A DNA stretch of 64,000 bases from Candidatus Latescibacterota bacterium. GTDB taxonomy: Bacteria > Latescibacterota > UBA2968 > GCA-2709665. The stretch covers positions 2,172,918-2,236,917 of the forward strand of contig CBDCOX010000002.1 in NCBI GenBank assembly GCA_965219995.1. The letters are read 5' to 3'. The position numbers and the translations under genes are program-made. Below the pieces are notes generated by a model, which was not told where the DNA came from, ran no database searches, and saw only the letters and a program-made list of their open reading frames with translations. Shown piece after piece: positions 19,549-62,845 of this stretch (position 1 is its first letter; every line of letters begins with the position of its first letter).

Positions 19549-21834
19549 ATGGAAAGAAACCCTTCAATCTGGCTCGCCCTGGCATTTGTCCTGGGTGCCT
19601 GTTCCGGGGAAGAGGCCGGGGTAACGCTATCCGGCGCCGTGGCTCGCCCCGGGAAGTACGCGCACCGGACCGGGTGGGCCGTGGCCGATTACGTAAAGGC
19701 GGCCGGCGGATACACGCGGGAAGCCGTCGTGAACGAAGGAAGGTTGATCCGGGTAATTCGGGACAGCGTGACGAACGAAGAGACGAACCGGTCGTGGTGG
19801 CCGCTGGTATCGTCGCCCCGGGTCGTCGCCGGGGACCTGATTCTCGTCCCGTTGCGGACCTACACGGTGCGGATGGATAGCGTACGGGCGATTGAAGACC
19901 TGTCCATTCAATGGCAGGAAAGAGAATACCGGGTTCCGAGAGGCTGGATGGCAGAAGGTCGGACCAGCGCGGGCGTGATGGTTGTATCGATAATCGGCGT
20001 CGGCACGGTTTTTGGTAACGGGGACGGCGAAGCCATGGGCAGGTTTCAGTACCTCTATCTGCATCTGCATCCCGAAGTGTTTCACGAACTTGCCTTGCCC
20101 GGGGGAAGCCCGGTGAGCAACCGGCTGGTTCTGGAGGACGCCCGCGGAGTCCACCAGAGTGTCTTCCCCCGACTGCGGCATCGCTCCGGCGAGCGGGCCG
20201 AAATGCCGCCGGAGGGGCACATGCGGGTTCTGGCGGGCGTATGGCCGAAGCCCCGAAGCAAGGCGTCGCCCGGTTCCGGCATGCGGAAACGGAAATACAA
20301 GGACGGGCGTGAGTGGACCACGTTTCCCGACGGCAGGCAACGAACGGTGTTCCCGCACGGACGCGTGGAAGTGGAATTTGCCGACGGATCGCGCAAAACA
20401 CACCACCCTGATGGCGGTGTCGAGTCAACGGATGCGGGGGGAAACGTGCGGGTCACCCATCCCGATGGAAGGATCTCAGCAACGTTCGCCGACGGCAACC
20501 GGGAAGAGCGGCTGATCGACGGACGGATCGTGCAACATTTCAAGACCGGAACGCGGCGGACGATTTTTCCGGGCGGCACGGAGAAGACGCAATTTGCGGA
20601 CGGCACCGTGCACGTCAAACGCAGAGACGGAACCGTGGAAATGTCCTTCCCCGAGGGCGCGAGCGAAACGCGGCATGCCGACGGCCGAATCACAGCGGTC
20701 ACCCGCGACGGGCATCGGGTGACGATATTTCCGAACGGCCGGCGGCTGACCCGGGCCGCAGACGGGACGGTGCTCGAGGAGTTCGCGGACGGGAGGCGCG
20801 TGCAGTCGGGCCCGGACGGCGAGCGGGTGGAGGTGTTTATAGACGGGACCCGTCGAACGGCCTTGAAAAACGGCGCTACGGTTATTGAGAAACCCGACGG
20901 CAGCCGGGTCGAGCGCCATGCGGACGGGACGATCATAGAGATTACTCCGGATGGTCGAAGGGTGCAAACCGGCGTCGACGGAATCCGGTTGGAGACGCGT
21001 CCCGATGGGACGGAGATACAGACCGATACGGCAGGGAACCGGCTGGAGACATTTCCGGATGGTCGGCGCACACAGACGGACGTCGAAGGCAATCGCGTTG
21101 AGGAATTTCCGGACGGCATGCGGATCAAGACGTTCGCCAATGCCTACAGGTACTGGGGACCGTTACGGGACGATCTGGCGGCGGTCGACGAAACACCCGG
21201 GCAATTGGCGCCAGGAGGTCGTTTGCGTGTGTCCGGCGCCGTACATTCCGATCCGGAGGACCTGATGGCGGCGGTCTTTCGGCTTCCCGACGGAAGCGTT
21301 TTCGAAATTCCGGCCGAACGGGTAAACGGGCGTTTCTCCTGTGTGTTTCCCGAAAGCGTCTTCACCGCGCCCGGACATTACCGGCTACAGGTTCGGGCGC
21401 AACGTACCGGCGGATCCGTGGTGATGGCCGACCGGGCGCTGGTCGTGGGGAATCCGCCGCCGCTCGAGAAGATGGTGCTCGCGGTCATGCCATTTCGTGG
21501 CGCGGACGATGCCCGAGACCGGTTTAAAAAAATGGTTCACGGGGTACGCAGCCGCCTCGGATTGCCGGAACTGGATACCGACGCCCGGCTGGCCGAAATC
21601 GCCGGCGCGAAAATATGGGACGTCATGGCCAGCGGCGCCTTCGCGTCCGAGCCCGCCCACGCAGGCGAGGAAAGTTTCGCCCGGGGTCCGTCCGTTGAAG
21701 AGGTTTTTACGTTCCTGATGCTGAGCGGGGCTCACAGAAAGGGCATTCTGAATGAGGAATGGACGCGCTGGGGCGTGGCCGTACAGCAGGATGGAGACGA
21801 CGTCCTTGTGGTGATGGCTTTCGATACCGGGTAG
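19549..21834 (+). CDS. lipoprotein with SLBB domain, ~30 tandem TCP10/G-box-like repeats and C-terminal CAP (SCP/YkwD-like) domain
   Basis: Lipobox LGAC after MERNPSIWLALAFV; GAVARPGKYAHRTGWAVADYVKAAGGYT SLBB-like; repeats FPDGxxxxxFADGxxxx...; C-terminal ...HRKGILNEEWTRWGVAVQQDGDDVLVVMAF CAP-like. Confidence 0.75.
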   Translation: MERNPSIWLALAFVLGACSGEEAGVTLSGAVARPGKYAHRTGWAVADYVKAAGGYTREAVVNEGRLIRVIRDSVTNEETNRSWWPLVSSPRVVAGDLILVPLRTYTVRMDSVRAIEDLSIQWQEREYRVPRGWMAEGRTSAGVMVVSIIGVGTVFGNGDGEAMGRFQYLYLHLHPEVFHELALPGGSPVSNRLVLEDARGVHQSVFPRLRHRSGERAEMPPEGHMRVLAGVWPKPRSKASPGSGMRKRKYKDGREWTTFPDGRQRTVFPHGRVEVEFADGSRKTHHPDGGVESTDAGGNVRVTHPDGRISATFADGNREERLIDGRIVQHFKTGTRRTIFPGGTEKTQFADGTVHVKRRDGTVEMSFPEGASETRHADGRITAVTRDGHRVTIFPNGRRLTRAADGTVLEEFADGRRVQSGPDGERVEVFIDGTRRTALKNGATVIEKPDGSRVERHADGTIIEITPDGRRVQTGVDGIRLETRPDGTEIQTDTAGNRLETFPDGRRTQTDVEGNRVEEFPDGMRIKTFANAYRYWGPLRDDLAAVDETPGQLAPGGRLRVSGAVHSDPEDLMAAVFRLPDGSVFEIPAERVNGRFSCVFPESVFTAPGHYRLQVRAQRTGGSVVMADRALVVGNPPPLEKMVLAVMPFRGADDARDRFKKMVHGVRSRLGLPELDTDARLAEIAGAKIWDVMASGAFASEPAHAGEESFARGPSVEEVFTFLMLSGAHRKGILNEEWTRWGVAVQQDGDDVLVVMAFDTG
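20280..21130 (+). repeat. in-frame tandem array of ~27-nt (9-codon) imperfect repeats encoding xDGxxxxxF units
   Basis: Read directly from translation: TFPDGRQRTVFPHGRVEVEFADGSRKTHHPDGG...ETFPDGRRTQTDVEGNRVEEFPDGMRIKTF. Confidence 0.6.
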
Positions 21835-21938: not shown

Positions 21939-23021
21939 CTATTTGCGCCCGTATTGCAGAATGAAATCTTCCACCATCTCCCGGGCCTCGTCGTCGCTGA
22001 ACTGCTCGGGCGGGGTCTTCATAAAGTAGGATGAAGGACCCATCAGTGGTCCCTTGAGGCCGTGTTCGAGGCCAAGTTTGCAGCAACGGACCGCGTCGAT
22101 AACCACCCCCGCGGAATTGGGCGAATCCCAGACTTCGAGTTTCAATTCAAGATTGAGCGGAACGCCGCCGAAGGTTTCGCCTTCCATCCGGATGTGGCAC
22201 CACTTCCTGTCTTCCAGCCACGGCACATGATCGCTGGGGCCGACGTGAACGTTCGCCTCGCCCAGGTCGTAGTCGAGCTGGGACGTAACGGCGTTGGTCT
22301 TGCTGATCTTTTTGGATTCCAGCCTCGATCGTTCCAGCATGTTGTAGAAGTCGGTATTCCCGCCAAAGTTCAACTGGTAGGTGCGGGTAAGCTTAACGCC
22401 TCGTTCGCGAAAGAGCCGGGTGAGAACCCGGTGGGCGATGGTTGCCCCGACCTGCGATTTGATATCGTCTCCAATGATGGGCAGGCCGCGTTTTTCGAAG
22501 CGCTCGGGCCAGTGCCCCGCGCTCGCAATAAACACGGGCACACAGTTGACGAAACCACATCCGGCTTGAAGAACCTGCTCGACGTACCACTTCGTGGCCT
22601 CTTCGCTGCCTACCGGCAGATAGTTGACAACGACATCGGTTCCGGTGGCTTTGAGGACCTCTGCCACGTCCACGGTACTCCCGTCGGCCTTTTCGATGAC
22701 TTCGCTGAGATATCGGCCGAGACCGTCGTGGGTCATGCCGCGCTGAACGGGCACGTCCAGATGGGGAACGTCCGAAAACCTGACCGTATTATTCGGCTCG
22801 GTGAAGATTGCCTCGCTGAGGTCCTTTCCGACCTTGTTCCGGTCGATATCGAACGCGGCGGAGAATTCAATGTCGCTGATGTGATAGCCGCCCAGTTCGG
22901 GATGCATCAGACCGGGAATGAAGCTGTCTTCAGATGCGTCTCTGTAATACCGGACACCCTGAACGAGAGAAGATGCGCAGTTGCCGACGCCGACGATGGC
23001 AACCCGGACTTTTCTGGCCAT
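21939..23021 (-). CDS. ino1: myo-inositol-1-phosphate (inositol-3-phosphate) synthase, bacterial/archaeal type
   Basis: [22 protein letters not shown]... Rossmann start and overall ~360-aa MIPS architecture; AAAGGAG RBS. Confidence 0.8.
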
Positions 23022-23125
23022 TGGGAAACTCCTTTAAAGGGTAATGTTCTGCTGTTCTCGACATGAGCCGGCTGAAAAGATAGGTACTTTTATGTATTTG
23101 ACAAATGAATAATTGCTATATTATT

Positions 23126-23142
23126 TATAGAAAATTTCTATA
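23126..23142. promoter_or_regulatory. perfect 17-bp palindrome TATAGAAA-A-TTTCTATA, candidate operator upstream of ino1
   Basis: Seen directly; ~105 bp upstream of ino1 start in AT-rich divergent region. Confidence 0.35.
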
Positions 23143-23158
23143 AATGAAACACACTAAA

Positions 23159-23535
23159 GGCGGTGAGACGTAAGACGGGAGACGTGAGATTAAGTGAGTG
23201 CTCTATGGTTTTCCTGATCGCAACGAGAAGGGTGCAAAATTCGGCACTGGTTAAGACAAAAAGCTGTATGTCAATCCAGGGTCTTGGTCGACGAGATTCA
23301 ACCTCGTGTTTCGGCCCTGTACCTCATTTACTTCACGCCGTATAGTGTGATAAGGTCTTTCATCTACCGTCTACCCTCTTACGTCTCACCGGTTTTATTG
23401 CCGGTTTCATTTCTTGCCAGAGGCATAAAGGACGAACCAATCGGGCACGGACGTCATCTACCGTCTAACGTCTACCCTCTCACCGCTTTCAGGTTTTCAT
23501 TCTACCCGCTTACGTCTCACCGGTCTTGTTGCCTG
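23159..23535. repeat. MITE-like repeat-rich low-GC insertion in ino1/lysR intergenic region
   Basis: ggtgagacgtaagacgg (23162) inverted relative to cttacgtctcaccgg copies at ~23387 and ~23507; direct repeats catctaccgtcta...cttacgtctcaccggt(c/t)tt(a/g)ttgcc at 23361-23410 and 23454-23535. Confidence 0.45.
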
Positions 23536-23557
23536 GCTGTCCCTACAGGAGGCGTTT

Positions 23558-24481
23558 ATGAACCTGCAACACCTGAAGTATTTCCTTGCGGTTGCCCGCG
23601 AGGGCAGTTTCAGCCGGGCCGCGCGAGAACTGCACGTGACGCAGCCTACCGTCAGCAGCGGCGTGGCCGACCTGGAGACGGCACTTGGCGTGCGACTGTT
23701 CAACCGGGGCAACCGGCACGTCGGACTGACGATGGAGGGAAGGACGCTTTCGAATTACGGAATGCAGATTCAGGACCTGGTGGAGTCGACCGAAGACCGA
23801 CTCAGGCGACGGGACGTTCTGCCGGGCGAAGGATTTCAGTTCGGGGCGATCGACGCCGCCGTTACCTATCTGCTGCCTGACATTCTGAAAGCGTATATGC
23901 GGGACTTTCCCAACGTGGCGCTCTCGGTCCAGGTGGCCCCCTCACGGTACCTCGTGGACGATCTGCTACTGAACCGCTCCGAATTCGCGGTGATTTCGTT
24001 GCCGTTCGACCATCCGAAACTGGAAACGGTTTCCATACATCGAGACTCCATGCCCCTGGTGACAGGGTCCTCACACAGGTTTTCGCAACGTTCGCCCGTG
24101 GTGCTGGAAGACGTTGCAAAGGAGCCGCTGATTCTGTTTCACGCCGACTCCGTGTCCAGAAAAATCGTAGACGAGCGGTTTGCGGAGGCGGGCGTGTCAC
24201 CCGGGGTGGTTATGGAAATGCGCAGCCCCGAGGCCATGCGAAAACTGGTTGAGGCGGGCGTCGGGATCTCGTTTCTGCCTCATCTCACGGTGCGGGATTC
24301 GCTGGAGTCCGGGGCGCTGGTGACCGTACCTGTGAAGGGCGTGCGATTCGGCCGTGAGATAGGCGTGGCCTGGCGGGAGGGGCGGTATTTCGGACCCGCG
24401 ATCCGGCACCTGCTGGACGCCGTATTCGAACGGTTCGGGGTGACAGCGGACGGAATGCAGGGCGACGTGGCGGAGGTCTAG
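23558..24481 (+). CDS. LysR-family transcriptional regulator
   Basis: N-terminal HTH MNLQHLKYFLAVAREGSFSRAARELHVTQPTVS plus LysR substrate-binding domain. Confidence 0.85.
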   Translation: MNLQHLKYFLAVAREGSFSRAARELHVTQPTVSSGVADLETALGVRLFNRGNRHVGLTMEGRTLSNYGMQIQDLVESTEDRLRRRDVLPGEGFQFGAIDAAVTYLLPDILKAYMRDFPNVALSVQVAPSRYLVDDLLLNRSEFAVISLPFDHPKLETVSIHRDSMPLVTGSSHRFSQRSPVVLEDVAKEPLILFHADSVSRKIVDERFAEAGVSPGVVMEMRSPEAMRKLVEAGVGISFLPHLTVRDSLESGALVTVPVKGVRFGREIGVAWREGRYFGPAIRHLLDAVFERFGVTADGMQGDVAEV

Positions 24482-62683: not shown

Positions 62684-62776
<93 letters not shown>

Positions 62777-62845
62777 AAAAAACAAGCGCACGCCTGCTCT
62801 TCCTGACCACTGGCCACTGCCCACTAATCACTGCTACTGGTAACA

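Follow-up and report, generated by a model that had tools for sequence, protein, structure and literature searches.

Heptad-armed palindromic repeats in the lysR leader of a Latescibacterota bacterium: a probable composite of a dispersed MITE/REPIN-like family

REP sequences are palindromes of 20–40 bp, one end of which bears a GTAG or CGTC tag (PMC3733652), and REPs and REPINs are associated with a RAYT gene, encoding an IS200-like Y1 transposase, that is flanked by the repeats (PMC3116915). Bacterial MITEs are small, non-coding, intergenic and dispersed elements with imperfect terminal inverted repeats, whose presence or absence differs between relatives (PMC3184786). Heptameric repeats are reported to be over-represented in the intergenic DNA of Xanthomonas and Nostoc (PMC4692102). 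For heptameric repeats in bacteria, an origin by slippage has been proposed. Here we analyzed a 64-kb stretch of DNA (hereafter the window) whose placement in Latescibacterota came from the homologues of its LysR protein, and focused on a repeat cluster in the spacer between ino1 and lysR. With a probability of roughly 0.72, the segment at 23156–23533 is a composite built from a MITE/REPIN-like family of palindromic, non-coding, dispersed repeats that is abundant in Latescibacterota and was inserted here in the lysR leader.

The spacer (23022–23557, 536 bp) is bounded by a minus-strand open reading frame at 21939–23021 on one side and a plus-strand open reading frame at 23558–24481 on the other. 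An orthologue of the former carried the Pfam domain PF01658 (Inos-1-P_synth), identifying it as ino1, and homologues of the latter carried the LysR domains PF00126 (HTH_1) and PF03466 (LysR_substrate), identifying it as lysR. The gene order (ino1 divergent from lysR, followed by thiI) was kept in relatives whose LysR was 82–92% identical. As an earlier note on this DNA had stated, the spacer is lower in GC than its surroundings (0.38–0.49 inside versus 0.56–0.64 in the flanks). Only short open reading frames run across it (60 and 198 aa listed), so the cluster is small and non-coding. Upstream of ino1, a 761-aa open reading frame (19549–21834) encodes a highly repetitive protein with many PDG/ADG...R/H motifs, and its orthologues gave weak SLBB and Tcp10_C matches.

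The repeat cluster described in the earlier note is real, and its 13-mer, inverted pair and direct copies were all recovered. The 13-mer CTTACGTCTCACC occurred exactly three times: on the minus strand at 23162, where the plus strand reads ggtgagacgtaagacgg (23162–23178) and its complement gives CTTACGTCTCACC, and on the plus strand at 23378–23390 and 23509–23521. The inverted copies had been placed at 23387 and 23507; the copies themselves stand, and their positions are corrected to 23378 and 23509. Allowing 2 mismatches, no further match to the 13-mer was obtained in the 64 kb, all three lying in the ino1–lysR spacer, while the arithmetic chance expectation for an exact 13-mer in 128 kb of two-strand sequence is ~0.002. 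A repeat search revealed an inverted pair of 42 nt with 81% complementarity (23152–23193 with 23359–23400) and a three-member direct repeat family at 23356, 23457 and 23487. The segment 23455–23533 holds two arm segments, in agreement with the earlier description of an internal duplication in the second direct copy. A feature missed at that time is that the repeats are phased at 7 nt, with degenerate NGNNAGA units on one side and TCTNNCN units on the other, around hairpin-prone cores. Nine TCT/AGA triples at period 7 were counted in the window, seven of them in the ino1–lysR spacer, compared to 0.22 in shuffled sequence.

The modules of the cluster, all given on the plus strand, follow in the order arm, type-1 core, arm, type-2 core, arm and arm fragment. 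The 5′ arm (23156–23196) comprises an AAAGGC flank, the heptads GGTGAGA, CGTAAGA, CGGGAGA and CGTGAGA (23162–23189) and a degenerate TTAAGTG; it was detected by TRF with a period of 7 and 3.9 copies, and matched family profile positions 4–40 (E = 8.6e-6). The type-1 core (23197–23355) starts with GTGCTCTATGGTTTTCC and, by nhmmer and alignment, shares homology with the cores of seven OZ241917.1 type-1 units, relative to which it contains an extra window-specific segment of ~79 nt (roughly 23264–23342, a 79-column insertion). It is followed by 3′ arm A (23356–23390; heptads TCTTTCA, TCTACCG, TCTACCC, TCTTACG and TCTCACC), which forms the inverted counterpart to the 5′ arm, with 81% complementarity to it over 42 nt and a profile match of E = 1.6e-7. 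The type-2 core (23391–23456; GGTTTTATTGCCGGTTTCATTTCTTGCCAGAGGCATAAAGGACGAACCAATCGGGCACGGACGTCA) contains an internal hairpin, TTGCC-aga-GGCA, and directly abuts arm A without a 5′ arm of its own. It leads into 3′ arm B (23457–23484), where the heptads TCTACCG, TCTAACG, TCTACCC and TCTCACC are followed by GCTTTCAGGTTTTCAT. The best match of the cluster to the family profile, over positions 58–149, was found at 23403–23494 (E = 2.8e-23). Arm fragment C (23501–23533) consists of TCTACCC, GCTTACG and TCTCACC with the tail GGTCTTGTTGCC, gave an inverted match of 86% over 22 nt, and ends 24 nt 5′ of the lysR start codon, upstream of the lysR ribosome-binding site AGGAGG (23547–23552). A T-rich run follows each arm, and a terminator-like hairpin with a T-run was predicted at 23388–23415.

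The arms of the type-1 unit are 165 nt apart, the 79-nt insert included, and the whole composite is ~380 nt long. A single element with terminal inverted repeats about 350 bp apart, as proposed earlier, was therefore not recovered; the cluster instead combines a type-1 unit, an abutted type-2 unit and an arm fragment. Another OZ241917.1 locus (L016) shows the same succession from arm A through core 2 into arm B, with 85% identity over 137 nt, indicating that the composite itself was copied.

To the left, the repeat is bounded by an AT-rich control block (23076–23145) that lies outside it and is conserved in relatives. The block contains TTGACA on the plus strand (23098–23103) and a promoter-like site on the minus strand running from 23104 to 23077 (TTGTCA, a 16-nt spacer and TATCTT), and ends in a perfect palindrome, ATTTATAGAAA-A-TTTCTATAAAT (23123–23145), whose 11-nt arms are 100% complementary. 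Judged from these motifs, the block probably holds overlapping divergent ino1/lysR promoters, and the palindrome is probably a LysR-type box. Measured from the inferred start of ino1 transcription, the palindrome centre lies ~64 nt upstream, which would be the classical position of such a box. The cluster is situated downstream of the promoter/palindrome block, in the lysR leader, and not between the divergent promoters as had been claimed.

To compare this arrangement with that of relatives, we aligned the orthologous ino1–lysR spacers of four loci (L001, L004, L005 and L007). The AT-rich block was aligned and conserved in all four up to window position 23142, where homology stopped, and the only other aligned part was ~12 nt before the lysR ATG. 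The distance from the block to the lysR ATG was ~25 nt in L005, 140–210 nt in L001, L007 and L004, and ~410 nt in the window. The heptad cluster was absent from these four spacers and from the upstream regions of 41 further metagenome lysR orthologues (~45 in all), so that the comparison proposed in the earlier note, whether related spacers lack the element, gave a clear answer: every orthologous upstream region examined lacked it. The L004 spacer retained only a remnant of two to three heptads and carried, at L004 5829–5906, an inverted pair of a different dispersed palindromic repeat, TTGTAGGGGYGTCC, which was also present at three other Latescibacterota loci (L080, L083 and L096). Because L004 holds this other dispersed repeat, the lysR leader segment appears to accept insertions of different repeat families by lineage, and the alignments indicate that the stretch running from the promoter/LysR-box block to the ribosome-binding site of lysR is free to vary, with lineage-specific filling. 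Conservation of position across orthologous loci, as expected of a LysR binding site, was found for the palindrome at 23123–23145 and not for the cluster. The candidate control element at the ino1–lysR locus is thus the palindrome and not the repeat cluster.

To identify further copies, the arm motif TCTNCCNNCTTACGTCTCACC was scanned over ~185,000 species with one genome each, for which ~17 chance matches were expected by arithmetic. The motif was present in at least 95 genomic stretches, and among the matches listed nearly all came from Latescibacterota MAGs, with many per genome, as on the chromosomes OZ242010, OZ241917, OZ242358 and OZ242180. The remaining listed matches were mainly from MAGs labelled Gemmatimonadota, at loci 93–95% identical to Latescibacterota ones. 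One of these MAGs, RHO1_bin_28, carries the heptad-armed family on its contigs (L044, also L013, L014 and others); its locus L044 was 93–95% identical over 5.9 kb to L080 of the Latescibacterota chromosome OZ242358.1, and by this similarity its Gemmatimonadota label looks wrong. A scan of viral contigs returned 0 matches to the arm motif. With a rough ORF caller, 96 of the 108 motif sites were intergenic. The family profile detected 100 units in 739 kb of fetched loci; in the 64-kb window its matches were confined to the ino1–lysR cluster, and the multi-copy status of the family rests on the related genomes. The earlier note had held that a single-copy segment conserved in position across relatives would favour a regulatory array, and the opposite was observed, with many copies in related genomes and absence from orthologous spacers.

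Across the family, each unit is built from a purine-rich 5′ heptad arm, a hairpin-prone core of 60–90 nt and a pyrimidine-rich 3′ heptad arm. Units are ~125–170 nt long, the canonical form being ~125 nt with about four 5′ heptads, and units or modules occur singly, nested or abutted. Eighty-one full-length units aligned over ~125 nt with a mean column identity of 78%. The heptad logo was sGkdAGA for the 5′ arm and TCThhCn for the 3′ arm, in which four positions were invariant at 96–99% and the other three were free; in the 5′ heptad the four are the G in second place and the AGA in places 5–7, fixed at 98–99%. Within one MAG, copies with 97–99% identity and unrelated flanks were located on four different contigs. 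At two pairs of orthologous sites, the repeat was present in one genome and missing from the other (L013 vs L038, L051 vs L073). Grouped by orientation to the flanking genes, 25 units were same-sense, 20 antisense, 15 divergent and 8 convergent, which shows no bias, and unit orientation showed no pattern with chromosome position or local GC skew. Pure heptad arrays of up to 18–21 units were present in genomes that carry heptad-armed units (L035, L106).

The family resembles REPs and REPINs (PMC3116915, PMC3733652) in being extragenic and high-copy, with inverted arms that give a hairpin of ~100 nt or longer, and also in the clustering and nesting of its units, its lineage-specific subfamilies and its near-identical copies within a genome. 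It differs in that its arms are degenerate heptad arrays and not self-palindromes ending in an unpaired GTAG or CGTC tag (CGTC recurs inside the heptads, not as an unpaired terminal tag), that a structured core of 60–90 nt separates the arms, that units show no convergent or 3′ intergenic preference, and that the fetched DNA of the sampled loci showed no RAYT gene. The MITE properties named at the outset are shared by the family, dispersal in many copies having been observed in related genomes. As to size and inverted repeats, the element is non-coding and under ~600 bp, with a 42-nt pair at 81% in the window and 88% of the consensus arms paired. Unlike a MITE, it showed no clear target-site duplication at the two filled/empty site pairs and no parent IS with shared ends in the fetched DNA, and the family's ends are tandem sub-repeats of variable number, with modular, recombinable parts. 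The tandem 7-nt intergenic units recall the heptameric repeats of Xanthomonas and Nostoc (PMC4692102), the cyanobacterial STRR and the small dispersed repeats of Nostoc, as do the presence of several heptad types per genome and of other short repeats beside the heptad arrays. The differences from these repeats are another phylum and unit sequence, the three degenerate positions, and inverted arms around a conserved core in place of plain arrays. The literature search retrieved no description of such a heptad-armed family in Latescibacterota, and the family appears to be undescribed. What sets it apart from MITEs and REPs is the combination of arms made of phased, partly degenerate heptads with swappable cores. 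The STRR are reportedly detailed in Mazel 1990, and the small dispersed repeats (SDR) of Nostoc are said to be covered in Elhai 2008.

We then searched for traces of a mobilizing enzyme. No clear target-site duplication was detected at the two filled/empty pairs (L013/L038 and L051/L073), whose flanks are so diverged that one could be missed. The HUH motif of RAYT type (NH.H regex) gave no match in the window and 106 loci, ~800 kb in all, although absence from such a sample carries little weight for single-copy genes such as RAYTs. Likewise, no cognate IS with the family's ends was found in ~800 kb of fetched DNA, which comprises sampled loci and not whole genomes. When 551 neighbouring proteins were clustered and then searched against Pfam, the recurrent families sampled were of an ordinary metabolic kind (GFO/IDH/MocA, ABC transporter, enolase-like, sulfatase and similar), with no transposase. 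Among the genes beside the densest repeat nests there was one transposase, of the DUF772 type. It belongs to an IS at L082 ~935–2760, which encodes a 508-aa protein with a DUF772 domain, has ends of approximately TGAGTCCNCTCCGAGAAG and lies inside a ttcattcttaattc heptad array beside a repeat nest. This IS was rejected as a partner of the family, its terminal repeats TGAGTCCNCTCCGAGAAG being unrelated and the IS merely inserted into the heptad array. Because neither a target-site duplication nor a cognate transposase was found in the DNA sampled, we call the cluster MITE/REPIN-like and do not apply the term MITE in its strict sense. The earlier proposal of a small non-autonomous mobile element is largely upheld by the dispersed multiple copies in relatives, the absence from orthologues and the filled and empty sites, with the qualification that the cluster is a composite and not a single MITE.

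To assess the folding potential of the repeats, we predicted structures for single units and for the lysR leader. Since the 5′ purine heptads are complementary to the 3′ pyrimidine heptads, either DNA strand or the transcript can fold into a long imperfect hairpin. Four single units gave folding energies of −51 to −59 kcal/mol, with z of −4.0 to −5.4 in three of the four and −2.0 in the fourth, and in a hand-projected consensus hairpin 88% of cells were paired, compared to 45–51% in slid controls. The predicted lysR leader RNA containing the cluster reached −136 kcal/mol (z −3.2), with the 5′ arm pairing with arm B or arm A. Many units carry an A-run 5′ and a T-run 3′ (consensus ...CCCGCCTTTCTTC), and the forward strand folded better, modestly, in 58 of the 81 units. 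In the 81-unit alignment there was no covariation beyond column composition, with pairing of 87.9% observed versus 88.1% shuffled (384 of 500 shuffles reached the observed value) and 8 pairs with double changes versus 9.2 in shuffles, and RNAalifold returned 0 consensus pairs on the same units. A permissive Rfam search of the spacer gave only chance-level matches (E above 5), and at gathering scores the whole window and 18 loci gave only tRNA and tmRNA. Pairing at the shuffled level together with the lack of covariation fits a palindromic repeat that was multiplied from master sequences, and not an ancient RNA whose shape is maintained by compensatory change.

Being made of a hairpin repeat with many copies in Latescibacterota genomes, and lying in a variable stretch of the lysR leader, the cluster has the look of selfish or mobile DNA rather than of a locus-specific regulatory site. 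The family would most likely spread as selfish DNA, in the manner of a MITE or REPIN, by means of a trans-acting enzyme, and heptad numbers in the arms would then change by slippage. At this locus, lysR transcripts starting from the conserved promoter would read through ~400 nt of strong hairpins and T-rich runs, and the ino1 promoter and LysR box would stay intact despite the cluster. The cluster could dampen lysR expression or modulate it in some other way, because the predicted leader RNA folds strongly and contains T-rich runs and the terminator-like site at 23388–23415.

That site, the long stable hairpins and the A-run and T-run flanks would also suit units that are functional RNA elements multiplied genome-wide, serving as bidirectional terminators, mRNA-stabilizing hairpins or platforms for a multimeric RNA-binding protein that recognizes AGA at 7-nt steps, with the cluster here acting as a lysR attenuator. 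The four near-invariant heptad positions, the better forward-strand folding in 58 of 81 units and the many G-U positions point in the same direction; REPs are known to be transcribed, and the UAG-N4 sites of HutP have a similar period-7 NAG spacing. We nevertheless consider such RNA elements unlikely, because the units show no orientation bias to genes, with 15 lying between divergent genes, because covariation, RNAalifold pairs and an Rfam family were all lacking, and because presence and absence vary between close relatives. Two observations nonetheless speak against the selfish-DNA reading: the near-invariant positions suggest a sequence-specific constraint that "junk DNA" alone does not explain, and the strand difference in folding hints at a single-strand function. 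A bolder reading, which we regard as quite unlikely, is that the phased heptad records the contacts of a dedicated protein that moves along single-stranded DNA or RNA seven nucleotides at a time, be it a transposase or recombinase of a new kind or a multimeric RNA-binding protein. If so, heptad-armed hairpins would form a class of their own among mobile or regulatory elements, and the arms seen in Deltaproteobacteria, Bacteroidetes and Chromohalobacter would point to its occurrence in several phyla.

The heptads might alternatively have arisen without any transposition, local slippage producing heptad microsatellites whose cores were spread or homogenized by recombination and gene conversion. 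The pure arrays of 18–21 heptads in L035 and L106, the other heptad types nearby, the similar arms occurring singly in other phyla (L022, L030, L033) and the over-representation of heptameric repeats reported in Xanthomonas and Nostoc all fit this account. It is nonetheless improbable: slippage would homogenize whole heptads, yet three positions are free and four are fixed, and it leaves unexplained both the 125-nt units with conserved cores at ~100 unrelated loci and the near-identical copies on different contigs. Short repeated motifs in a divergent regulatory spacer also bring to mind an array specific to this locus and bound by the adjacent LysR or another regulator of ino1 and lysR, related to the set of regulator binding sites that the earlier note had offered as its second option. 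This idea has very little left in its favour, as the repeats are absent from all orthologous spacers, where the separate palindrome at 23123–23145 is the conserved candidate site, and the same repeats lie beside unrelated genes in many genomes. Moreover, a 7-bp period does not fit the helical repeat of DNA. Two specific candidates were rejected as well: a sigma-54 promoter (...GG-N-TTGC... beside arms A and C) has the wrong spacing by eye, and the resemblance of the AGACGT repeats to MetJ boxes fails on a period of 7 and not 8 and on the wrong phylum.

A composite of mobile, MITE/REPIN-like repeats remains our preferred reading, and it has several implications. Latescibacterota have not been cultured, and the dynamics of their genomes are almost unstudied. 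A high-copy family that is easily recognized by a profile explains assembly breaks, as where L107 ends in the spacer, and can be used as a lineage marker; it also marks intergenic sites of possibly perturbed expression. Phased degenerate heptad arms are unusual among MITE/REP-like elements, and provide a link to the poorly understood heptanucleotide excess in bacteria. L107 is a metagenome contig whose LysR is 92% identical to that of the window, and it breaks off 157 nt upstream of lysR (L107 1–157), within the variable spacer.

Further heptads and repeats were observed in and beyond these genomes. Heptad arms of the GTGAGAC/GTCTCAC type, some as short hairpins, were present in one MAG each of Deltaproteobacteria and Bacteroidetes and in an isolate of Chromohalobacter (L030 2733–2810; L022 104–145 and four more arrays; L033 833–867), so that the motif extends beyond Latescibacterota. 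The window contains a second heptad array at 62803–62837 (CTGACCA/ACTGNCC type, ~4.4–5 units), between a tRNA (62684–62773) and the next open reading frame, which is similar to STRR units read in reverse complement. Heptads of the same ACTGNCC type flank repeat units in OZ242010.1 loci, and further types nearby were TTCTTAA and TCAGCNN. A separate repeat of ~134 nt, gcagacctctcccccctgcctgcc...ggaagggggtaggtctcgaaa, has several internal hairpins and often lies directly 5′ of heptad arms. It gave no Rfam match and was absent from the window, and the fetched OZ241917.1 loci contained 13 matches, 11 of them near full length, including L027 567–700, L046 1379–1514 and 1838–1962, and L082 178–749, as well as copies in L059, L065 and L043.
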